IMG/VR virus record: IMGVR_UViG_2675903650_000003
Location: 1 to 10,471 of that record
DNA from: a virus
Lineage: Duplodnaviria > Heunggongvirae > Uroviricota > Caudoviricetes
Length of the DNA stretch: 10,471 nt
Strand: one strand, 5' to 3'
Within the stretch, counting starts at the first letter, position 1. Each line of letters opens with the position of its first letter. Made by a program: the position numbers and the translations under genes. The notes under the pieces are model-generated. The model ran no database searches and was not told the DNA's origin. It saw only the letters and a list, made by a program, of their open reading frames with translations. Below, piece by piece: positions 1 through 10,471 of this stretch.

Positions 1-50
1 GTGGATCACTTTTCATCCGTCGTTGACACTCCCATGAAAAGACGCACGGT

Positions 51-359
51 ATGCGGGGCTGGGAATGTATTGTTGACGGTGTATCGGGCTTTGATATCAA
101 ACAAGATAACCAGCGAACCTTCTCAATTTCTCTCGAAAGAGCAAGCGGTACTGTTGAAGTTAAGTCCTTTGACATCCCGGTAACTATCTATCGCGATGTA
201 TTCAAATCTGGTACCGAATATCAACCTGGCGATACGGTCACATGGGGTGGTTGTATGTGGCATTGCAACGAGAAAACATGCGACAAGCCAGGTGAGACAG
301 GATCGAAAGGATGGACGCTTGCTGTTAAGAAAGGGCGAGATCTGAGGGATAAGCCATGA
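51..359 (+). CDS. Hypothetical small protein (102 aa) upstream of the connector gene; contains a C-x2-H-C-x4-C motif
   Basis: First ATG after the in-frame stop at 24-26. Its stop overlaps the ATG of the next gene (ATGA at 356-359), indicating translational coupling. The translation has protein-like composition. Shine-Dalgarno is weak. Function unknown. Confidence 0.45.
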   Translation: MRGWECIVDGVSGFDIKQDNQRTFSISLERASGTVEVKSFDIPVTIYRDVFKSGTEYQPGDTVTWGGCMWHCNEKTCDKPGETGSKGWTLAVKKGRDLRDKP

Positions 360-682
360 TTGAACTGGTGACGCTCGAAGAGGCTAAGTTGCATCTCCGT
401 ATTGACGACGATTACGGAGATTCAGACCTTACCTTAAAAATTCAGGGCGGCAGCGCAGCAATACTTTCCTACATTCAGGGAAGTCGCGCGTTAGTCGTGG
501 ATGATTCAGGAAAGCTTATTGATGGTGAACCGCTAACTCGCGTTCAGACGGCCCTGCTGGTTCTTCTTGGCTATCTTGACCGTAACCGCGGCGGCGAAGA
601 AGAAGAAAAGTTGAAACAGGGGGAACTTCCTTTTTCTGTATCAATGCTGATTTACGACCTCCGTAAGCCGACAATTATTTAA
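356..682 (+). CDS. Head-tail connector protein (phage gp6-like)
   Basis: 108-aa product with N-terminal LEEAKLHLRIDDDYGDSDL followed by helical ALLVLLGYLDRNRGG, which I recognise as the gp6-like connector pattern. Located immediately upstream of the head-tail adaptor and tail completion genes. Confidence 0.7.
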   Translation: MIELVTLEEAKLHLRIDDDYGDSDLTLKIQGGSAAILSYIQGSRALVVDDSGKLIDGEPLTRVQTALLVLLGYLDRNRGGEEEEKLKQGELPFSVSMLIYDLRKPTII

Positions 683-752
683 GGGGCATGTATGGCATGC
701 GCAGGATGTGCCAGACGGCGCGAGTGGATTAAAAAGTGGACGAGGATTGCCT

Positions 753-947
753 ATGAACGAGCAGCAGGTAAACGAACTAACGGCGGCACTGAAAGCGCTG
801 GCAACGTCTCAACTGAAACAGGCAGAAGCGATAAACCGTCTGGCTCAGGCGGATGAAACACTGATATCTCTGATTGCCAAAACGCTCGTTGATGAAATTG
901 ATGATGAGCTACCACCGCAGACCTATCTTGATGGTAAGCCGAGGTAA
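753..947 (+). CDS. Hypothetical small acidic protein (64 aa; alternative GTG start at 708 would give 79 aa)
   Basis: ATG at 753 is preceded by GAGG at 741-744. The GTG at 708 has AGGA only 2 nt upstream, so it is less likely. Product is helical and acidic with no recognisable motif. Stop at 945-947 lies 2 nt before the next gene start. Confidence 0.45.
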   Translation: MNEQQVNELTAALKALATSQLKQAEAINRLAQADETLISLIAKTLVDEIDDELPPQTYLDGKPR

Positions 948-949
948 TC

Positions 950-1282
950 GTGGAGTTTGCTAAACTGCGTCACCGCATCACTATTCAGCGACGAACAGCC
1001 ACCCAGTCACCAACCACAGGGGCAATGGAATACACCTGGAATGACCTTGCAGAGGTGTGGGGTAACGTGGTTGCCTCATCGGTCAGGGATTTCATTACAG
1101 CCCAGGCATCAAACGTAAAAGTAACGGCCAGAATCACTATCCGATACCGGGAAGATATCCAGGAGAAAGACCGTATTCTTTTCCGTGGCAAAATCTACAG
1201 CATTGAGGGGATTCTTCCTGACCCTGATAGTGGGCTCGAATATCTTACGCTTCCGTGCTCAGAGGGGGTAAGGGATGGTTGA
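950..1282 (+). CDS. Head-tail adaptor / head closure protein (SPP1 gp16-like, lambda FII-like position)
   Basis: GTG start at 950 preceded by GAGG at 941-944. 110-aa product with KDRILFRGKIYSIEGILPDPDSGLEYLTLPCSE, resembling the conserved core of head-tail joining proteins. Synteny supports the call. Confidence 0.65.
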   Translation: MEFAKLRHRITIQRRTATQSPTTGAMEYTWNDLAEVWGNVVASSVRDFITAQASNVKVTARITIRYREDIQEKDRILFRGKIYSIEGILPDPDSGLEYLTLPCSEGVRDG

Positions 1283-1760
1283 TAGCATTGATTTTAAGCT
1301 TGAAGGTGTAGATTCACTGCTTGGTAAGTTAGAAGCCATTACCTCAGAAACTAAGCGCAAAACAGGGCGCTCCGCACTGAGGAAAGCAGGAAACGTTATC
1401 GTAACTCAGATAAAGAGAAACGCAGAGCGACTCGACGATCCTCACACCGCACGTAGCATTGCTGATAACGCCGCGCTGCGCTGGAATGGTCGTATGTTTA
1501 AACAAACCGGTGATCTTGCCTTCAGGATAGGCATTCTTCAGGGAGCCGTTTTAAAAAAGCATCCAAGCACTGCGAAAGATGCCCCCACTCCTCACTGGCG
1601 TCTTCTTGAGTTTGGCACTGAAAAGATGGCAGCAAAACCGCTCGTTCGTGCTGCTGCAAATTCCAGACTGATAGAGGTTTTCAACACCTTCTCTGTTAAC
1701 TATGAAGCGGGGATTGACCGAGCTATCAAACGAGCACAGAAGAAAGGAGAGACGGCATGA
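1275..1760 (+). CDS. Tail completion protein, HK97 gp10 family (lambda Z-like position)
   Basis: 161-aa product containing WRLLEFGTEKMAAKPLVRAA, the EFGT signature I associate with the HK97 gp10 family. Overlaps the upstream gene by 8 nt and the downstream gene by 4 nt. Confidence 0.7.
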   Translation: MVDSIDFKLEGVDSLLGKLEAITSETKRKTGRSALRKAGNVIVTQIKRNAERLDDPHTARSIADNAALRWNGRMFKQTGDLAFRIGILQGAVLKKHPSTAKDAPTPHWRLLEFGTEKMAAKPLVRAAANSRLIEVFNTFSVNYEAGIDRAIKRAQKKGETA

Positions 1761-2122
1761 TTGCTCCTATTTTTCCTGTTTGCGCGTCGAGTCCTGAAGT
1801 CACTACTTTACTCGGAAGCAATCCGGTAAGAATTTACCCTTTCGGAATTCAGGACGATAATGTTGTTTATCCATACGCCGTCTGGCAGAACGTCAGCGGC
1901 TCTCCTGAAAATTTCCTTAACCAACGACCAGATGCGGACATTTATTCGCTTCAGGTTGATATCTATGCCGATACCCCTGATGAGGCGATTGCTGTAGCTC
2001 AAGCCATGCGTAATGCGATTGAGGTAAAAGCCAACATTGTTCGCTGGGGTAATCAGACGCGAGACCCTGAGACGCTCAGGTATCGATATTCTTTCGACGT
2101 TGACTGGATAGTCAACCGATAA
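1757..2122 (+). CDS. Tail terminator / tail completion protein (DUF3168-like, lambda U-like position)
   Basis: 121-aa product with RIYPFG...VVYPYAVW...LQVDIYA pattern. Position immediately upstream of the major tail protein gene. ATGA overlap with the preceding gene. Confidence 0.55.
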
Positions 2123-2134
2123 CAAACCTTCCAC

Positions 2135-2158
2135 AACCGGCCTTGAGCCGGTTTTTTT
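2135..2158 (+). terminator. Rho-independent terminator or attenuator between the tail terminator and major tail protein genes
   Basis: Perfect 7-bp stem AACCGGC (2135-2141) / GCCGGTT (2147-2153) with 5-nt loop, running into a run of seven T (2152-2158). Followed by GGAG at 2165-2168 and ATG at 2175. Confidence 0.6.
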
Positions 2159-2174
2159 ATACCCGGAGATAATT

Positions 2175-2672
2175 ATGTCAGTAGTGACTCAAGGCACTCA
2201 GATGTACGTTCTGAATAACGGCGTGGTCAGTGAAGTTGAATGTATTACTTCATTCTCACCAGGTAGTAGCCCGGCAGATCAAATTGAAGATACCTGTCTG
2301 AGCGAAACCAATACCCGTTCTTATAAAAAAGGTCTGCGCACCCCGGGTCAGGCAACCGTTGCTCTTAACGCCGACCCGGCAAACGCCAGTCACGTAATGC
2401 TGAGCAACCTGGCTGAATCAAGCGACCAGACCAACCTGACCTTCGCTATAGGCTGGGCCGATGGTACTGCAGATCCTACTGCTGCAACAGTCGGTGACCC
2501 TGATGCAGTTGATGGTCTGTCTCTTCCAGATACCCGTACCTGGTATGTATTCCAGGGTTATGTATCAGATTTCCCGTTTGATTTTCAGGCCAATACGGTA
2601 GTTCAGACTTCCGCGACTATTCAGCGTTCCGGCCAGGGCGTCTGGGTTCCTAAAGCACAGCCAACCAGCTAA
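2175..2672 (+). CDS. Major tail (tube) protein
   Basis: 165-aa product, rich in T/S/G/A/V and of likely beta-rich composition. Good RBS. Flanked upstream by a terminator and downstream by a stable hairpin. Occupies the lambda V position directly upstream of the G/GT chaperone and tape measure genes. Confidence 0.7.
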
Positions 2673-2692
2673 ACGTAATAATCTGCCAACTA

Positions 2693-2708
2693 GCGGGGGT
2701 AACCCCGC
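2693..2708 (+). promoter_or_regulatory. GC-rich hairpin with GUAA (GNRA) tetraloop downstream of the major tail protein gene; no U-tract
   Basis: GCGGGG (2693-2698) pairs with CCCCGC (2703-2708) around loop GTAA. It is followed by AATAAGAGAG, not a T-run, so it looks like an mRNA stabilising or processing structure rather than a full terminator. Confidence 0.4.
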
Positions 2709-2724
2709 AATAAGAGAGTAATAA

Positions 2725-3102
2725 ATGAAACTGACTCTGGATTCATTAAAACAGGCTGGTGCATTCACTGGGAGACCTGTTGAGAAGGAGATTACCTGGA
2801 AGCAGAGTGATAAGGAAATTACCGCTACCGTTTATATCCGACCTATGGGTTATCACGACGCAGTATCTACTGTTCTGTCAGCCGCGGGAAAGATTGATGG
2901 TGTTGCCGGACGTATCGCATCATCCATTTGTGATGAGAACGGGAATCCTGTTTTTACTGTTGCTGACATTACTGGTGAAGCAGACCCTGAGCGCGGTGCG
3001 CTCGACGGAAACCTTACCGTCGCTCTACTTGTCGCTATTCAGCAGGTTAACGACCTGGGAAAGACGAACTCAGCGCAGAAGACGAATTCTGGTGTGAATT
3101 AG
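2725..3102 (+). CDS. Tail assembly chaperone (lambda gpG-like), zero-frame product
   Basis: 125-aa acidic product directly upstream of the tape measure gene. RBS AAGAGAG at 2712-2718. Contains the slippery heptamer GGGAAAG near its 3' end. Confidence 0.8.
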   Translation: MKLTLDSLKQAGAFTGRPVEKEITWKQSDKEITATVYIRPMGYHDAVSTVLSAAGKIDGVAGRIASSICDENGNPVFTVADITGEADPERGALDGNLTVALLVAIQQVNDLGKTNSAQKTNSGVN

Positions 3103-3368
3103 TTCTCAACGGGATCGGCGGTCGCACCATTGCTGAAGCAAAAGAACGCGTTAGCGTTACAGAGTATCGCGACTGGGTTCTTTACCGTCAAAAGTACGGT
3201 AGCCTTAACGGAATGATGCGTACTGAGTGGGCCGCAGGCCTTATTTCTTCTGTGCTGGCTAACGTCAACCGTGGAAAAGATTCCCCCTCCTTCAAAGTAA
3301 CAGACTTCACACCACACATTAACGAGCCTTCCATTTCACTGGAGCAGGCTATGCAGGAGTGGACATAG
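2725..3368 (+). CDS. Tail assembly chaperone frameshift fusion product (lambda gpGT-like), made by -1 slip at 3057-3063
   Basis: The -1 frame (codons starting at positions divisible by 3) opens after a TAA at 3048-3050 and has no stop until TAG at 3366-3368, 2 nt before the tape measure ATG. Its translation reads ...DEFWCELVLNGIGGRTIAEAKERVSVTEYRDWVLYRQKYGSLNGMMRTEWAAGLISSVLANVNRGKDSPSFKVTDFTPHINEPSISLEQAMQEWT. No ATG-initiated + strand ORF of useful length covers 3103-3369. Confidence 0.65.
3057..3063 (+). promoter_or_regulatory. Programmed -1 ribosomal frameshift slippery heptamer G GGA AAG
   Basis: Heptamer GGGAAAG at 3057-3063 with zero-frame codons GGA (3058-3060) and AAG (3061-3063). 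This is the same heptamer as the lambda G/GT slip site. The -1 frame is open from 3051 to 3368. Confidence 0.65.
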
Positions 3369-3369
3369 C

Positions 3370-5895
3370 ATGGCTGGTAAATCCCTCGGAACGCTGACCA
3401 TTGACCTGATAGCTAAGGTTGGTGGATTTGTATCTGGTCTAAGCCAGGCTGAACGAGCATCTCAAAAATGGCGAAAACAGGTTCAGGCTGATGCAAAAGC
3501 GGCTGCGGTAGCATTTACTGGTTTTGCTACCGCGGCAAGTGCGGCAGCTATCGGTGTCGGTGTCGCCGGTTACAACCTGCTAAAAACAATGTCAAAACAG
3601 ATTACCGAAACAGACCGTTGGGCTAAGTCGCTCAATATGTCTACGCAGTCATTGCTTGCCTGGCAGTATGCAGCTGAAAAAGCTGGCGTATCCGGCGACC
3701 AGATGGCCGATATCTTCAAGGATATTGGCGATAAAATTGGCGATGCTGTACTGAATAAATCGGGTGAAGCAGTAGATGCTCTGAATGCACTCGGATTATC
3801 GGCTAAGAAATTATCCAGTGAATCACCAGATAAGCAGTTGCTGGCTATCAGCAATGCGCTCGGCAAGATTAAAACAAACGCTGAAAAGACCACAATCCTT
3901 GAAAGTCTTGGTAACGACCTTTCCAAGCTTCTCCCATTGCTTGATCAGGGAGGAGAAAAACTTCGTCAGTACATGGACGCGGCAAAACAGTTTGGCGTTG
4001 CCCCTGACGATGCTGATATCGAAAAGCTGGTAAAAGTAAACTCCCTGTTTGAGGACATGGAGACGCAGGTAAACGGTGTAAAAATTGAGATTGCCACCGG
4101 CCTGGCCAATGTTGACTTGTCAGGGTTACAGAACGCGATAACTGACATGGGGGATGTATTCAAAGATCCTCAGGTTATTCAGGGTTTGACAGACCTGGTT
4201 GGTGGTGTTGTTGATCTCGCGACCTGGCTTGTTAAAGTTGGTGCTGAAGCAGGGAAGCTAATTGACCTGTACAAAGGCGGTAAGGCTGTAGGTGACAATG
4301 CATCTGTAACTGATATAGAGCGCCGCCTCAACAATCTTAAAACTGATGTAGAAGATCAGGGATTCCTTGCCAGCTTTAACCGAATTGGTATGGACGTTGA
4401 CGGGAAAAAAGCTGAAATAGCGCAATTAGAACGCCGACTGTCCATCATGAAAGCCGGTAATAATCTTCCTCTCAGTCAGGCCACTGTAGGTGCGCCTTCT
4501 TCTTCCAGCAAAAATTATTCCTTAGGCTCAGGAGAAACTAACGGGAAAGCATCTCCAGATGCCGGGGCCAGAAAACTGGAGTCAGCATTTAAGTCTCTGG
4601 AAATGAGCTATCAGCGTCAGATAGCGCTGATTGACACAACTGGCAAAAAGAATCAGCAGGTAACCGAGCTTGAGAAGCTGCGTTTTGATTTTACATCTGG
4701 GAAATTAACAGGAATTAATGCAGCTCAGAAAGAGCGACTTGAGCAACTTGCTACTGAGATAGATCGCCTCAACTCACTTAAAAAAGCCAACGAAGAAAAT
4801 CTGAAACTTGTCGAATTTACCGCTAATTTACGTAAGCAAAATCAGAATGACCAGGCAGCTAATGATTCTGATTTTATCGGCGCAGGTATGGGAGACAAGA
4901 CTCGCCAGCGCATGAAGGAATTGCTGGATATCCATCGTAGTTTTCTCGACAGGCAGCAAGATCTACAGAAACAGTACCAAAGTGGTGATATAAGCAAATC
5001 GCTTTATGACCAGGAAACGGCAGCGTTACAGCAGGCGCTTGATGACCGTCTTGATATTCAGGAGGACTACTACAAAAAGTCTGATGCTCAGATGGGCGAC
5101 TGGCAAAGCGGGATAATGGACTCGTTGAACGATTATGCTGATAAATCAGCTGATTATTACCAGACTGCTGCAGATGCGATGACTTCTATTCTTGGTGGAG
5201 CAACCTCGGTTATTTCTGACAACCTTAATGACCTTGTGCACGGTGCAGAAGATTTAGGTGATTTCTTCAGTAATATTTTCTCTGGTCTTGGTGAAACAAT
5301 CATTAAAACCCTTTCTGATATGGCGGCGCAATGGCTGGTATATCAGGCAGTGCAATTGCTGGTAGGTAAATCCACTCAGGCAAGCGCAGCGGCATCAATG
5401 CTGGCAAACGCACAGGCATCATCTTTGCAGGCTCAAATCGCAGCATACGCATCGACAGCGGCAATTCCTATCGTTGGTCCCGCGCTTGCACCTGCAGCGA
5501 TGGCAACAGCTGCGGCAGTAACTGCACCACTTGTTGCAGCAGTTGGTACTTCTGCCCTGGCAGGTATGGCGCACGATGGTATTGATAGCGTCCCGGAAAC
5601 AGGAACATGGTTGCTCCAGAAAGGTGAGCGAGTTGTGACCTCTCAGACGTCAGCAAAGCTTGATGAAACACTGGACAGAGTAAATCAACAATCAACCAGC
5701 GGAGCAAGCTTCTCTCCCGTTATTAACATGAATGTTAACGGTGATCCGTCTGATACTCAGATCTCCATGATGAAGCAAGCCATGGCAGAGGGGGCAAAAC
5801 TTGGATATCAACAGGCAGCCAGCGACCTTGCCAGTGGGAAAGGTGACATTTCGAAAGCAATGATGCGCTGGAACACTAACAGGAGAACTGGTTAA
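3370..5895 (+). CDS. Tail tape measure protein (lambda gpH-like)
   Basis: 841-aa product. N-terminal region resembles the lambda-family tape measure domain. Long helical, coiled-coil-like middle. Ala/Gly-rich hydrophobic stretch near the C-terminus followed by WLLQKGERVV. Sits directly after G/GT and before the tail tip genes. Confidence 0.9.
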   Translation: MAGKSLGTLTIDLIAKVGGFVSGLSQAERASQKWRKQVQADAKAAAVAFTGFATAASAAAIGVGVAGYNLLKTMSKQITETDRWAKSLNMSTQSLLAWQYAAEKAGVSGDQMADIFKDIGDKIGDAVLNKSGEAVDALNALGLSAKKLSSESPDKQLLAISNALGKIKTNAEKTTILESLGNDLSKLLPLLDQGGEKLRQYMDAAKQFGVAPDDADIEKLVKVNSLFEDMETQVNGVKIEIATGLANVDLSGLQNAITDMGDVFKDPQVIQGLTDLVGGVVDLATWLVKVGAEAGKLIDLYKGGKAVGDNASVTDIERRLNNLKTDVEDQGFLASFNRIGMDVDGKKAEIAQLERRLSIMKAGNNLPLSQATVGAPSSSSKNYSLGSGETNGKASPDAGARKLESAFKSLEMSYQRQIALIDTTGKKNQQVTELEKLRFDFTSGKLTGINAAQKERLEQLATEIDRLNSLKKANEENLKLVEFTANLRKQNQNDQAANDSDFIGAGMGDKTRQRMKELLDIHRSFLDRQQDLQKQYQSGDISKSLYDQETAALQQALDDRLDIQEDYYKKSDAQMGDWQSGIMDSLNDYADKSADYYQTAADAMTSILGGATSVISDNLNDLVHGAEDLGDFFSNIFSGLGETIIKTLSDMAAQWLVYQAVQLLVGKSTQASAAASMLANAQASSLQAQIAAYASTAAIPIVGPALAPAAMATAAAVTAPLVAAVGTSALAGMAHDGIDSVPETGTWLLQKGERVVTSQTSAKLDETLDRVNQQSTSGASFSPVINMNVNGDPSDTQISMMKQAMAEGAKLGYQQAASDLASGKGDISKAMMRWNTNRRTG

Positions 5896-6368
5896 TGGCT
5901 AAAACGACCAGCATTAACTATCCGAATGATTACCTTCCTGTTCCATTGCAGGAAGGGTTCGGGTTAAAGCCAGTTAGCCCATTACTGAGAACCGAACTCA
6001 CATCCGGCAGGGCGAGGCAGAGGAGATTATATACTTCAACGCCAACTCAGGCCTCGGTTGCATGGCTGCTTACGGATCCGGAAGCTCAACTATTTGAGGT
6101 ATGGTTCAGGGACACCATTAAGGATGGCGCTGACTGGTTTAACATGCCTCTTCGATCTCCGTTAGGCGTTGTTGATGTTTATGTCTGTCGTTTCGTGGAT
6201 ATCTATGAGGGGCCGACAATTGAAGGCGGAAACTACTGGCGCTACACGGCCACGTTGGAATTGTGGGAAAGGCCTGTTCTGGCTCCTGGCTGGGCTGATT
6301 TTCCTGATTACATTATCAACAGCAGCATCATTGATATTGCGCTTAACAGGGAGTGGCCTGAGCCATGA
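5895..6368 (+). CDS. Minor tail protein, lambda gpM-like
   Basis: 157-aa product. Segment TQASVAWLLTDPEAQLFEVWFRDTIKDGADWFNMP aligns by eye with my recollection of the lambda gpM core (SVTLSVPREEATVLESFLEEHGGWKSFLWTP). TAATG overlap with the tape measure stop. First gene after the tape measure gene. Confidence 0.6.
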   Translation: MAKTTSINYPNDYLPVPLQEGFGLKPVSPLLRTELTSGRARQRRLYTSTPTQASVAWLLTDPEAQLFEVWFRDTIKDGADWFNMPLRSPLGVVDVYVCRFVDIYEGPTIEGGNYWRYTATLELWERPVLAPGWADFPDYIINSSIIDIALNREWPEP

Positions 6369-6847
6369 CGATTCTAAATAGGCTGTATGCCTCATCCGGG
6401 GAAGAGGTGATCATCGAAACCCTGCAAATAAACATCGGTACTGGTGTTTATTATCTTTGTAAAGGCTTCGATGACATCACCGCAACAACCGAAAGTGGCG
6501 TGGTGGTAACCTTTCAGGCTGCGGCTATTGATATTGCCCTTCCAGCAAGAAACAGCGATGGTACACAAGATTTGCAGTTTGCCATTGATAACATAGACGG
6601 GATTACTTCCACCGCCATACGGAATGCTCTGGATAACCTTTCAGAGGCATCGCTGACATATCGTAACTATGTCTCCACGGACCTCAGTGCTCCGGCATCT
6701 GTACCGTACACGCTGGCGATTAAAAGCGGGTCATGGACATCCATGCAGGCGCAGATTACTGCCGGATATATGAACGTTCTTGATACCGCATGGCCGCGCC
6801 ACCGATACACCCTCCCGTATTACCCCGGCCTTCGTTACATGAGTTAA
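6365..6847 (+). CDS. Minor tail protein, lambda gpL-like N-terminal domain only
   Basis: 160-aa product. VIIETLQINIGTGVYYLCKGF...VVVTFQAAAIDIALPARNSDGTQDLQFAIDN resembles my recollection of the lambda gpL N-terminal pattern (VVLWEIDLTEVGGERYFFCN...VTWQGRQYQPYPIQGSGFELNGKGTSTRPTLTVSN). It has a single Cys and no C-terminal Cys-rich region. ATGA overlap with the upstream gene. Confidence 0.55.
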   Translation: MTILNRLYASSGEEVIIETLQINIGTGVYYLCKGFDDITATTESGVVVTFQAAAIDIALPARNSDGTQDLQFAIDNIDGITSTAIRNALDNLSEASLTYRNYVSTDLSAPASVPYTLAIKSGSWTSMQAQITAGYMNVLDTAWPRHRYTLPYYPGLRYMS

Positions 6848-6856
6848 GGAGCAACA

Positions 6857-7237
6857 ATGTTCAATCCTGATAAATACCTTTCTGTCATATTGCAGAAGGG
6901 CGGTCGCACTTATCCTGAACTTGACTGCTTCGGCATAGTGAACGAGGTACGAAAAGACCTGGGGCTACCACTGTGGCCAGATTTTTCAGGTATAACAAAA
7001 GACGGCGGAGGTTTAAACCGAGAGGCCAGAAAGCTCATGCTTTCTCTGGAAAAATGCGCGCCGTGTATAGGTGCCGGTGCCGCCTGTTATTCCGGGTCAA
7101 CCGTTACTCATGTTGGTGTAGTCGTTGAAATTAACGGCCAATTGCATGTCGCAGAGTGCAACCCAGGAGTGAACGTTACCTTCCTTCCTGTCTCGCGTTT
7201 CAAACGTCGTTTTGTCAAAGTGGAGTTCTGGAAGTGA
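6857..7237 (+). CDS. Tail tip assembly protein with NlpC/P60-like papain-fold domain (lambda gpK-like, minimal)
   Basis: 126-aa product. LDCFGIV (Cys24, codon 6926-6928) matches the NlpC/P60 DCSG-type catalytic Cys motif. THVGVVV (His85, 7109-7111) and LHVAE (His97, 7145-7147) match the downstream His-containing motifs. Strong RBS AAGGAG at 6845-6850. Confidence 0.7.
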   Translation: MFNPDKYLSVILQKGGRTYPELDCFGIVNEVRKDLGLPLWPDFSGITKDGGGLNREARKLMLSLEKCAPCIGAGAACYSGSTVTHVGVVVEINGQLHVAECNPGVNVTFLPVSRFKRRFVKVEFWK

Positions 7238-9951
7238 CTATCAGAATTTATCCTTCACGGCTGCCTGGCGAGCCACTCGAAACTCATGAACATGGCGCAG
7301 TAACTATCCATCAGTGGCTTGCGAAGAACGTTCAGGGCTATAAGCCTGATATGAAGCACCCGATCACCGTTGATGTTGATGGAGAGAACATACCGCCTCA
7401 GGCATGGTTTGAATTTGCTATCAAATCAGACAGTGATGTCAGAATTTACCCTGTCCCTTATGGCGCTGTAGCTCTTGTCTGGATTGCCGTTGCTGTATCA
7501 GTTGCATCAGTCGCGTATGCTCTTTTCTTTGCTCCTGGTGTTGGTGACCTTGGCGGTTATTCATCAGGAACGGGAAACCCTCTTGATGTAAATCCTGCTA
7601 AAGCGAATAACGCAAAATTGGGCGACCCGATACGTGAGTTATTTGGACGAAGCCGTATTTATCCTGACTATGCAGTGCAGCCTGTAACAAGATTCTCAGT
7701 TGATGATCCAACGGTAATGACAGTTGAAATGTTTGTTGTTATGGGGAGAGGGCGTTTTTCATTTGGGGATGGCGATATTCGTGTAGGGTCAACTCCAATT
7801 GCTTCTCTTGGTGATGGGTTTAACTACACAGTGTATCAACCCGGGCAAAGCGTTAGTGGAGATCAACGATCAGAAAACTGGTTCAATTCCACAGAGGTTG
7901 GGGGAACCGCATCTGGTTCTGGTCTTGATATGGCGCAAACCGCGCCGGACACGGAAGATGTTGTTGCTAATTCGCTAACCGTTTCCGGACCAACAATAAC
8001 ATTTAATGGGCTGAGCACGGATGATGGAGATGAAACAACAAATGATCTTCCAGATACATGGACTGTTGGTGCAATTGTTGAGTTAATTGTTCCTGATTCC
8101 TATGTGGTAACTAATGATGGTGCTTACAGCAGAATTACCAGTGACACGCTGGAGGAAATAGCTCCTTATGTTGGGATGCCTGTAACTCTCTGGTACAACA
8201 GCATTGATTACCAACTATTCATTGCTGATTTTATACCTCACTCTGAGCCAGTCGGCGAAGATGTGATTACCGCATCAATAACCCTCGCTTACGATAGCGC
8301 CACTGGAACTCCGTTCACCGGGATTCCTGAAGGTTATGTCAGGCTATCTGTTTCCCATTCCGGAAGCGAATATAAGATTCTTGATATAGATGGTAGCTCT
8401 GTAACTCTGGAGCGGGTTATTGATGGCAGCGTTGATCCGTCATGGCCTGGATTTTCACCGCGCACAGTTCTTGATTTTGAAGCCAACGGTTTAAATGAGA
8501 ACGATAGTTGGATGGGACCTTTTCTGGCGTGCCCAGAAAATGAAGTTGTTGATATGTTCGAAGTAAACTTCTTCTTCCCAAACGGGATTTGTGGGTATAA
8601 CAAAAAAGGGAACAAACAATACCGTGAGGTAAAGTGGGAGATTCAGTACCGGCCATATGGTTCAGGCGTCGGGTGGATAAGTAAAACCGGATCGTACTAC
8701 CTCCAGAACATTAACGGACTGGGATTTACCGAAAGAATCACGCTGGATACGCCTGCGCTAGTAGAGGTGAGAGCTCGCCGCACGAACGAGCAGGGACAGA
8801 ATAACAGTCGCGATAACATGTACTGGCAGTCATTGCGAGGACGTTTGTTGTCACGGCCAGCATCGTATACTGGCGTCACCACAATTGCGGTTACTGTGGA
8901 AACTGGCGGTAAACTGGCAGCGCAGTCAGATCGCCGCGTAAACGTTGTAGCCACGCGAGTTTATGATTCTGGTGTGTCAAGGAGCATTTCTGGTGCTCTG
9001 TATCATATAGGTAATGAGTTGGGGCTAGCGATGGACCGTGAAGCTATTGACTCACTAGAAACTACTTACTGGACCCCTGGCAGTGAATTCTTTGACTATG
9101 CCACTACGGATTCTGTTTCTGCGCTGGAGATGCTTCAGAAGGTGACAAATGCAGGAAAAAGTTACTTCCTTCTTACCGATGGTCTGGCATCTGTAGCAAG
9201 GGAAGGTGTGAAAACGTGGACTGGAATAATCAGCCCACAGGAGATGACTGATCCGCTTCAGACTGCTTTCGTTGCTCCGTCAGCAGATGACTATGATGGT
9301 GTGGATGTTACATATATCAACGGCACTACATGGGCTGAAGAGACGGTGCAGTGCAGAACATCAGATAACCCAACTCCGGTAAAGATTGAGGACTATACGC
9401 TTGATGGTGTTCTTGACCAGGACCGTGCTTATCAGATAGGTATGCGACGTCTGATGAAGTACCTTCAGCAACGTTTGACTCATACCACAACAACGGAAAT
9501 GGATGCTCTCTGTTATAACGTTGGCGACAGGGTAGTATTCACGGATGATATTCCTGGTAGCAAAACAATAAGCACGTTGATTGAGGATATGAGTACAAGT
9601 GATGGCGTAACGACTATTACAGTATCAGAACCACTTGACTGGACATTCAACAACCCACGTGCATTGATACGCTATCAGGATGGTTCTGCTTCGGATTTGC
9701 TGGCAGCTACAAGGGTAAATGAATATGTTCTATCAGTAATAGAACAAGCAAAATTCAGCAATATCATGCTAAACGCCCCATCCATTGAATCGCCTCGTCT
9801 GATTTTCTGCGAGTCATCCCGTGTTGGATATAGCGCATTAATTTCAGAGATAGCACCGCAATCTGATGGAACATGTCAGGTAACGGCAAAAGAGTATCGC
9901 GACACTTTCTATCAGTACGATAACGCTACCTACCCCGGCAATGTAGCTTAA
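7234..9951 (+). CDS. Tail tip protein: lambda gpI-like N-terminal region fused in frame to a gpJ-like central tail fibre / host specificity protein
   Basis: Probable GTG start at 7234, overlapping the upstream stop (GTGA) with GGAG at 7222-7225. The track's ATG at 7156 lies inside the K-like gene. Residues 1-80 look ubiquitin-like, followed by a hydrophobic segment GAVALVWIAVAVSVASVAYALFFAPGV (about 7462-7545), then NNAKLGDPIRELFGRSRIY, which resembles lambda gpI (NVLPVLYGEMRVGS). The rest is a long beta-rich protein with J-like motifs (RRTNEQGQNNSRDNMYWQSLRGRLL). No stop codon separates the two parts. Confidence 0.7.
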   Translation: MTIRIYPSRLPGEPLETHEHGAVTIHQWLAKNVQGYKPDMKHPITVDVDGENIPPQAWFEFAIKSDSDVRIYPVPYGAVALVWIAVAVSVASVAYALFFAPGVGDLGGYSSGTGNPLDVNPAKANNAKLGDPIRELFGRSRIYPDYAVQPVTRFSVDDPTVMTVEMFVVMGRGRFSFGDGDIRVGSTPIASLGDGFNYTVYQPGQSVSGDQRSENWFNSTEVGGTASGSGLDMAQTAPDTEDVVANSLTVSGPTITFNGLSTDDGDETTNDLPDTWTVGAIVELIVPDSYVVTNDGAYSRITSDTLEEIAPYVGMPVTLWYNSIDYQLFIADFIPHSEPVGEDVITASITLAYDSATGTPFTGIPEGYVRLSVSHSGSEYKILDIDGSSVTLERVIDGSVDPSWPGFSPRTVLDFEANGLNENDSWMGPFLACPENEVVDMFEVNFFFPNGICGYNKKGNKQYREVKWEIQYRPYGSGVGWISKTGSYYLQNINGLGFTERITLDTPALVEVRARRTNEQGQNNSRDNMYWQSLRGRLLSRPASYTGVTTIAVTVETGGKLAAQSDRRVNVVATRVYDSGVSRSISGALYHIGNELGLAMDREAIDSLETTYWTPGSEFFDYATTDSVSALEMLQKVTNAGKSYFLLTDGLASVAREGVKTWTGIISPQEMTDPLQTAFVAPSADDYDGVDVTYINGTTWAEETVQCRTSDNPTPVKIEDYTLDGVLDQDRAYQIGMRRLMKYLQQRLTHTTTTEMDALCYNVGDRVVFTDDIPGSKTISTLIEDMSTSDGVTTITVSEPLDWTFNNPRALIRYQDGSASDLLAATRVNEYVLSVIEQAKFSNIMLNAPSIESPRLIFCESSRVGYSALISEIAPQSDGTCQVTAKEYRDTFYQYDNATYPGNVA

Positions 9952-9967
9952 TCCAAACATCAATATT

Positions 9968-9992
9968 ACCCGCTACGGCGGGTTTTTCTCTT
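9968..9992 (+). terminator. Rho-independent terminator downstream of the I/J-like gene
   Basis: Stem ACCCGC (9968-9973) / GCGGGT (9978-9983) with loop TACG, followed by TTTTTCTCTT. Next gene has GAGG at 9995-9998 and ATG at 10004. Confidence 0.6.
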
Positions 9993-10003
9993 ATGAGGCA
10001 AAT

Positions 10004-10465
10004 ATGACGACTTATAATACTGGCAATCCGCTGGGGTCTTCTGCTGCAAAAGATTTGTACGATAACGCCCAGAACTTCGATCATCTTTCTAATGATCAAT
10101 CCAATGAGTTATGGCCTGATCGTTTTGGTAATCCACGTCTTACTTGGCATGGTATGGAGTCAAAGTACAAAGAATCATTGTCAAAAATGGGTTGGATACT
10201 AATAAAATCATTTCAGGTTGGCGCAGAGATAACCTTGACTAATCAGGCATTGCACGACGAAACCTCTGGCGAGTATTACCGTTGGGATGGTGTATTACCT
10301 AAAACCGTTCCTGCTGGCTCTACGCCAGAAACGACAGGTGGGATTGGATTAGGTGCGTGGGTTAGCGTGGGTGATGCTTCATTGCGTGGAGATCTACTCA
10401 GCTTAGATGGTGAAAAATATATCGGTATCTGTCCTGACATTGCGGTGATGCTGCCAACTTACTGA
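10004..10465 (+). CDS. Hypothetical protein resembling the N-terminal anchor region of a tail fibre or tailspike (153 aa)
   Basis: Good RBS and ATG. AT-rich relative to upstream genes. Motifs GNPLGSSAAKDLYDNAQNFDHLSN and GIGLGAWVSVGDASLRGDLLS are reminiscent of N-terminal adaptor regions of phage fibres or spikes, but this is recalled similarity, not verified. In-frame TGA at 10463-10465, only 6 nt before the window ends. Confidence 0.5.
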   Translation: MTTYNTGNPLGSSAAKDLYDNAQNFDHLSNDQSNELWPDRFGNPRLTWHGMESKYKESLSKMGWILIKSFQVGAEITLTNQALHDETSGEYYRWDGVLPKTVPAGSTPETTGGIGLGAWVSVGDASLRGDLLSLDGEKYIGICPDIAVMLPTY

Positions 10466-10471
10466 TTTAGT

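Follow-up and report, generated by a model that had tools for sequence, protein, structure and literature searches.

The question raised by this locus is whether two tail tip proteins that are separate in phage lambda, gpI and gpJ, are made here as one polypeptide, or whether two genes have been merged by an error in the record. The DNA analysed (the window) is a stretch of 10,471 nt from a virus of the Caudoviricetes, covering positions 1 to 10,471 of the IMG/VR record IMGVR_UViG_2675903650_000003. An initial annotation had described positions 7234 to 9951 as a single open reading frame (ORF) in which a gpI-like tail tip assembly region continues into a gpJ-like central fibre. Our analysis led to the conclusion, to which we give a probability of roughly 0.88, that the product of this gene is the second baseplate hub protein in a siphophage tail tip of the D3/Jersey/Sf11 type, its N-terminal 156 residues or so being a gpI homolog joined to a J-like hub. 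The gene and its parts are as follows.

7234..9951, + strand, whole gene: 905-amino-acid (aa) baseplate hub protein 2, I-J fusion, phrog_469/TipJ family
7234..7458, + strand, residues 1-75: ThiS/MoaD/ubiquitin-like beta-grasp, equivalent of the gpI N-domain (Pfam Lambda_tail_I)
7465..7530, + strand, residues 78-99: hydrophobic Ala/Val-rich helix, counterpart of the hydrophobic H1/H2 region of gpI
7591..7713, + strand, residues 120-160: TAPI-C-like strand segment including the GDPIRELFGRSR motif, recognized by conservation and hhalign
7714..8535, + strand, residues 161-434: beta-rich hub and insertion domains, with AlphaFold2 predicted local distance difference test (pLDDT) values mostly above 85
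8536..9915, + strand, residues 435-894: TipJ-family hub core, recognized by NF040662, Pfam, hhalign, and Foldseek

In the ORF map and translation, the reading frame was uninterrupted from a GTG at 7234 to a TGA ending at 9951, giving 905 codons plus the stop. The start GTG shares bases with the stop codon TGA of the preceding gene (GTGA), and GGAG is present ahead of it at 7221-7224. A prophage in Escherichia coli TST3, 95% identical, carries a coding sequence (CDS) of the same length (2718 nt), annotated as 'host specificity factor TipJ family phage tail protein'; the ORF map and this CDS confirm the single ORF and the features initially described for it. The protein matched phrog_469 ('tail protein') from end to end (residues 1-903 vs profile positions 2-902/903, E 6e-264), and its full-length AlphaFold2 model, made from a 98-sequence alignment, had a mean pLDDT of 88.5. 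An in-frame GTG at 7156 was unsupported as the start, since homologs begin with MTIRIYPS... and the RefSeq start in strain TST3 is equivalent to 7234. An internal start near Met161/165, which would give a separate J product, was dropped because a brief look revealed no obvious ribosome-binding site upstream. The public label of the protein, 'kinase', is wrong.

Comparison of profiles by hhalign, with 87 family sequences (residues 1-156) set against 18 gpI sequences (lambda, HK97, N15, KS9, T1-like, and others), related the N-terminal region to gpI. The local alignment had a probability of 95.8% (P 6.5e-9; residues 29-142 vs gpI 44-198) and the global alignment 93.5% (P 3.6e-8; residues 1-156 vs gpI 14-212), with a P of 0.29 in a reversed-column control. 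When a narrow, lambda-only gpI alignment was used, probabilities of 20-75% were obtained (P 2.7e-5 in one run), and addition of 13 diverse gpI sequences from phage records raised the value to 95.8%. The similarity was colinear over the beta-grasp, the hydrophobic linker, and the C-terminal motif: the hydrophobic segment paired with the Gly/Ala-rich region of gpI, and GDPIRELFGRSR (residues 130-141, nt 7621-7656), which had been noticed as resembling gpI, paired with GNVLPVLYGEMRV of gpI. The family hidden Markov model (HMM) of residues 1-156 matched lambda-like gpI sequences with 20.9 bits in two colinear pieces, and the piece with the C-terminal motif scored alone (HMM positions 84-143 vs gpI 139-198). 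In the family alignment of the strand segment, N125 and G138 were invariant, and E135, P144, D145, and Y146 were conserved. At the end of the beta-grasp, P75 was present in 82% and G77 in 71% of the 87 members; the conserved glycine expected of gpI/TAPI is thus present.

Intermediate sequences strengthened this connection. The homolog in Stutzerimonas phage STP9 passes the Pfam model Lambda_tail_I (PF06805; 27.6 bits vs a gathering score of 23.8, residues 4-80), and its N-terminus also matched phrog_469 (E 1.6e-28). Among 76 other diverse members, ThiS was matched by 23 (best E 1.7e-7) and Lambda_tail_I by 5. In phrog_31 ('central tail fiber J'), a profile of 1565 positions, there is an I-like prefix: residue 1 of lambda J falls at position 263, lambda gpI 54-209 aligns to positions 132-276, and the N-termini of the BP15, STP9, and HY01 proteins align to positions 114-312 (E 5.6e-15 to 5e-6). 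Since both gpI and these three N-termini map onto the prefix, I-J fusions are already contained in the J PHROG. Weak colinear matches to phrog_32, the lambda gpI family, were given by the 905-aa protein (residues 28-103 vs 34-119), STP9 (70-144 vs 108-186), and BP15 (111-150 vs 153-192). Judged from these sequence comparisons, residues 1 to about 156 are homologous to lambda gpI.

Predicted structures agreed with the division into parts. The ubiquitin-like N-terminus of the initial annotation was found by AlphaFold2 and profiles to be a ThiS/MoaD beta-grasp at residues 1-75, with strands at 2-5, 16-19, 44-48, 51-53, and 69-73 and a helix at 25-32. Residues 76-110 were modelled with low confidence in the full-length prediction, as a disordered or flexible tether with a helix at 81-98. 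The Ala/Val-rich segment was likewise recovered at residues 78-99 (its hydrophobic stretch spanning 79-97), with a Kyte-Doolittle 19-mer mean of 2.33; a value of at least 1.6 was reached in 56 of the 87 family members. Its counterpart in D3-like proteins had values of about 1.0-1.2. D3 orf26 and PAJU2 gp22 have an insertion of about 18 residues within the beta-grasp (..PAEVALCGDLTDKQKKTH..). Residues 120-160 formed strands leading into the hub, with a pLDDT of 87-95 when the J body was present. When residues 1-160 were modelled alone, the beta-grasp was kept (pLDDT 93-97) and residues 104-160 dropped to about 50, a loss expected if those strands fold only against the hub. The I-like region, initially placed at 7234-7760, has the gpI-like start proposed for it and ends earlier, near residues 156-160 (nt approximately 7710).

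For the J part, NF040662 (attach_TipJ_rel) matched residues 435-894 with 432.8 bits vs a cutoff of 140, and the Pfam models FNIII-A_GpJ (436-535) and Phage-tail_3 (681-775) were both above their gathering scores. With one ORF carrying this match and the hhalign match to gpI, the covalent I-J fusion proposed initially is upheld. Residues 450-895 aligned to lambda J 119-598 by hhalign (P 9e-11). The best Foldseek match of the whole model was the Sf11 tail chain 9occ_E (E 4.8e-45), followed by four lambda J entries (E 1e-22 to 1e-25; 8k35_A 8e-25, 8xcg 2e-24), with further matches to T1, T5 pb3 (E 2e-8), JBD30, Chi, and the gene transfer agent. Against viral predictions, the N-terminal model matched the N-termini of many 'Tip attachment protein J' entries of 780-1480 aa. 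For residues 161-434 (approximately 270), neither Pfam nor NCBIfam had a matching model, and when residues 150-450 were compared with lambda J 1-700 by hhalign there was no match, including none to lambda J 1-118; because of this, the domains lying between the I-like part and the TipJ core are without a sequence-level assignment. The body is J-like and free of stops, as had been described, and its length is about 745 residues instead of about 730, with the TipJ models covering 435-894 only.

The term 'central fibre' had to be given up. The alignment to lambda J stops at about residue 598 of 1132, with 10 residues remaining in the 905-aa protein. Lambda J runs 530 residues further, comprising the fibre and the receptor-binding domain, and no such part is present here. 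As the protein ends where the lambda J fibre begins, it is a baseplate hub and not a central fibre.

That the long ORF might be an assembly or sequencing artefact, in which separate genes for I and J were joined by an indel near 7700-7800, was examined by comparison with related prophages and phages. Megablast of the hub gene against the phage collection gave no match, and tblastn was needed to find relatives. Prophages of E. coli, Citrobacter, and Klebsiella have the same single gene, as do phages D3, PAJU2, Jersey, and Sf11. It was uninterrupted, with the same junction sequence, in E. coli TST3, in Klebsiella phage KPP5665-2 (1022 aa; the Klebsiella relatives are about 115 residues longer overall), and in more than 100 clusters of 900-1020 aa among the matches listed, from Citrobacter, Escherichia, Klebsiella, Salmonella, Dickeya, and others. 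D3, PAJU2, PS-1, HY01, DDSR119, and Jersey also have the gene uninterrupted. The N-terminal 180 residues alone matched the start of a large tail protein in Pseudomonas phages D3, PAJU2, PS-1, and DDSR119, in Vibrio phages HY01 and BP15, and in one Stutzerimonas and one Synechococcus phage. When a profile of residues 1-163 was run exhaustively with HMMER, 440 cluster representatives were recovered (50% identity level, E <= 0.001). In the best 150 of these 440, all full-length matches carried the module at residues 1 to about 160 of a protein of 850-1370 aa; all matches of 140-320 aa were contig-end fragments or C-terminally chimeric pieces running on into J-like sequence, and no stand-alone N-terminal module was seen among the exhaustive matches. 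A homolog search with the 220-aa N-terminus likewise returned mainly contig-end fragments and frameshifted pieces.

Nothing in favour of the artefact was found. Frameshifted records do exist. The homolog is annotated as two consecutive overlapping CDS in Synechococcus phage Yong-L1-251 (split at about residue 349) and as three such CDS in Vibrio phage BP15 (split at about residue 357); these are sequencing frameshifts or real splits, and neither lies at the I/J boundary. Since the single ORF is conserved across hundreds of clusters and the I and J parts are fused in every full-length relative seen, the artefact is refuted, and we see practically no chance that it accounts for this gene.

A different alternative is that this J subfamily has an ordinary extension of 160 residues at its N-terminus, which shares with gpI only the beta-grasp fold through convergence or recruitment of another ThiS-like domain. 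Several results weigh against gpI homology, and the first and last of the following can be read in this way. Direct Pfam and NCBIfam searches with the 905-aa protein found no gpI model at its N-terminus (PF06805: none at E <= 0.1), BLASTP against lambda gpI gave an insignificant E of 4, the lambda gpI chains in the PDB were missed by the family profile, with only the T1 gpI homolog appearing (E 0.13-0.17), and ThiS was matched by more of the 76 members than Lambda_tail_I. A phmmer search of the whole protein against PDB sequences was uninformative. The homology rests on profiles and intermediate sequences, the plug and beta-augmentation roles considered below are assigned by analogy, and the hydrophobic segment is amphipathic, not membrane-like, in D3, PAJU2, PS-1, and Jersey, which bears on the membrane step. 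A recruited ThiS fold, however, does not account for the colinearity with gpI beyond the beta-grasp, through the linker and the C-terminal motif, nor for the independent scoring of that motif in both the family HMM and phrog_32 (153-192). The gene also lies right after the K-like gene, which is the position of I, and Iyer, Burroughs, and Aravind (Genome Biol 7:R60, 2006) came to the same conclusion on such fusions (PMC1779556). An N-terminus that is an ordinary part of J-family proteins and unrelated to gpI is therefore very unlikely, given the profile-profile match.

The fused product might also be a polyprotein, from which the beta-grasp or the whole I-like part is cut off in tail assembly, so that the mature parts act as separate I and J. 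Cutting might take place after the conserved Pro75-x-Gly77, with the adjacent NlpC/P60-type K-like peptidase as the cutter. This would fit the conservation of both residues at the beta-grasp end, the predicted disordered or flexible tether at 76-110, the unmodelled first 80 residues of Sf11 gp14 (PMC12724387), and the proposal of Iyer et al. that K peptidases release the Ub-like domain of gpI at its C-terminal Gly (PMC1779556). However, Sf11 gp14 is modelled continuously over 81-827, so that its hydrophobic and TAPI-C parts remain attached to the hub and the beta-grasp alone could be removed. In addition, the JAB domain proposed as the cutter is absent here, and flexibility explains an unmodelled domain equally well, as for the lambda gpI N-domain (PMC11101478). 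We consider such processing unlikely. A more specific version, to which we assign a slightly smaller chance still, is that the beta-grasp acts as an in-cis assembly chaperone and, once the hub has trimerized, is clipped at Pro75-x-Gly77 by the product of the gene immediately upstream, the JAB-less NlpC/P60-type K-like peptidase. Cleavage after Pro75-x-Gly77 may nevertheless take place and is the most interesting open point of this locus. Were the clipping to occur, it would amount to maturation of a phage tail by a deubiquitinase-like step, and it would explain both the invisible first 80 or so residues of the Sf11 protein and the fact that gpK-like proteins are required for assembly yet absent from the virion.

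The gpI-J hub fusion was compared with known tail tips. With lambda it shares the module order of beta-grasp, hydrophobic Gly/Ala-rich region, strand motif (..N..x..G.P[IV]..[LF][YF]G..R..), and J hub domains, the placement after a K-like gene, and the hub core aligning to J 119-598. It differs in being one polypeptide instead of two, with no free I of about 200 aa between K and J; in its I-like part of about 156 residues vs 223, which has a shortened hydrophobic region (one helix vs H1 and H2) and lacks the acidic C-terminal tail; in the absence of J 599-1132, the C-terminal fibre with the receptor-binding domain; and in its partners, a K without JAB and an L without the Fe-S domain. Lambda virions contain 3 gpI and 3 gpJ (PMC10721106, PMC11101478), and by analogy a 3:3 copy number would be expected here. 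The fusion thus creates no new stoichiometry, and the initial suggestion that a fixed 1:1 ratio is a special property of it does not stand. By cryo-electron microscopy, gpI in the virion is a trimer with an unresolved N-domain and hydrophobic helices; it forms a lumen plug beneath the tape measure C-terminus, and its strands are threaded through gpJ by beta-augmentation (PMC10721106, PMC11101478).

Fusions of this type had been described earlier. Iyer et al. identified the Ub-like domain of tail assembly protein I and, in row 5 of their Table 1, gave TAPI-TAPJ fusions alongside a JAB-less NlpC/P60 K-like protein (PMC1779556); all three features described there are present in the window, the likeness being one of description. 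A homolog has also been solved. Baseplate hub protein 2 of Sf11, gp14 (9OCC chain E), matched the family profile over its full length (E 2e-65), N-terminus included (residues 7-193, E 1e-20), with about 17% identity and 828 residues vs 905 here. Its residues 81-827 are modelled, in 3 copies per virion (PMC12724387, Table 1; 9OCC), with the hub and the hydrophobic and strand segments forming a single chain; residues 1-80 are unmodelled and gpI is unmentioned in that paper (PMC12724387). Sf11 also shares the tail tip type, in which hub protein 1 is short and tailspikes are present. Jersey gp32 (Guernseyvirinae) and D3 orf26 stand in the same gene order, PHROGs 384, 396, 329, and 469, followed by a tailspike or tail protein gene; Jersey gp29-gp32 are the same four PHROGs as the window genes, with a tailspike following. 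Jersey gp32 is very divergent, its BLASTP matches being confined to the C-terminal half. A 2026 analysis of Jersey left an N-terminal 'globular domain on a tether' of gp32 unexplained and did not name it gpI (PMC13243795). In T5, a single chain, pb3, holds the plug closing the tube, and lambda gpL, gpI, and gpJ's N-terminal part have been equated with this hub (PMC10721106). The plug of pb3 is inserted within the hub, and HDI is fused as well, whereas here the I-like part is N-terminal with a beta-grasp and HDI (DUF1833) is a separate gene. The fusion is accordingly a gene-boundary variant between lambda, with L, I, and J separate, and T5, with one chain and an internal plug, and not a new machine.

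By analogy with lambda gpI and Sf11 gp14, three copies of the fusion protein would close the tail cone beneath the trimer of the DUF1833 (gpL-like) protein and the hexamer of the distal tail protein. [quoted passage not shown] On opening of the cone, the helix may insert into the outer membrane, and host recognition would be left to the downstream tailspike. As the hydrophobic segment is amphipathic in D3, PAJU2, PS-1, and Jersey, membrane insertion may not be general, and this step is the least secure part of the mechanism.

The window is a head-to-tail structural module on the + strand, with the gene order tape measure, phrog_384 protein, DUF1833 protein, phrog_329 protein, hub, and tailspike N-terminus. 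The genes next to the hub gene are as follows.

3370..5895, + strand: tape measure protein, 841 aa (phrog_2854, E 5e-280; Pfam Tape_meas_lam_C)
5895..6368, + strand: 157-aa protein at the expected position of the distal tail protein (phrog_384, common to Jersey gp29)
6365..6847, + strand: DUF1833 protein, 160 aa, baseplate hub protein 1, short and gpL-like (PF08875, E 2.5e-39; phrog_396)
6857..7237, + strand: K-like protein, 126 aa, NlpC/P60-type domain only (phrog_329)
10004..10471, + strand: 5' part of a tailspike gene, running off the window (Pfam Tail_spike_N, E 7e-21; many tailspike PHROGs)

The short L-like and K-like proteins upstream had been fairly described. The DUF1833 protein shares phrog_396 with Jersey gp30, which is reported to be a truncated gpL homolog (PMC13243795). 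[quoted passage not shown] The K-like protein gave weak matches to Pfam CHAP (E 0.008) and Spr/MepS and a weak colinear match to lambda K around DCFGIV/DCYTLF, and no JAB/MPN domain was found in it by Pfam and PHROG searches. In RefSeq/GenBank, including many Klebsiella phage records, it is labelled 'nitrite transporter' or 'formate/nitrite family transporter', and small tail genes nearby in KPP5665-2 are labelled 'ABC transporter permease' and 'ArsR family regulator'. The name 'nitrite transporter' is wrong, and the transporter, kinase, and regulator labels look like propagated annotation errors. The 157-aa gene directly follows the tape measure gene, as in D3, PAJU2, and PS-1. Searches of the three upstream small proteins against the PDB by phmmer were uninformative. 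The tailspike gene, with a Tail_spike_N (TSP1/Gp66) domain, begins 52 nt after the hub gene. In Sf11, such tailspikes use their N-terminal helices to attach to a distal tail protein helix; that distal tail protein has 457 aa vs 157 aa for the candidate here.

Farther upstream, the tail assembly chaperone ORF (2725-3102) ends with the heptamer G GGA AAG at 3057-3063, which is the slippery site of lambda G/GT. The -1 reading frame stays open between 3063 and a stop at 3368 and includes the segment labelled 'tail assembly protein T' in E. coli TST3. Judged from the heptamer and this open frame, a programmed -1 frameshift yielding a G-T fusion is very likely.

The fused layout of the hub gene is ordinary and already known, being widespread, described in 2006, present in PHROGs, and represented by the solved tail structure of a relative, and the fusion reveals no new mechanism. 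The main value of the finding is in annotation: this is a tail-tip hub gene whose first 156 or so residues are the gpI equivalent. Recognition of gpI in this family links the Jersey and Sf11 structures to the lambda model of plug and membrane insertion. It also makes the placement of the Jersey tether in the lumen by AlphaFold, which was rejected by the authors of the Jersey analysis as implausible (PMC13243795), look reasonable.

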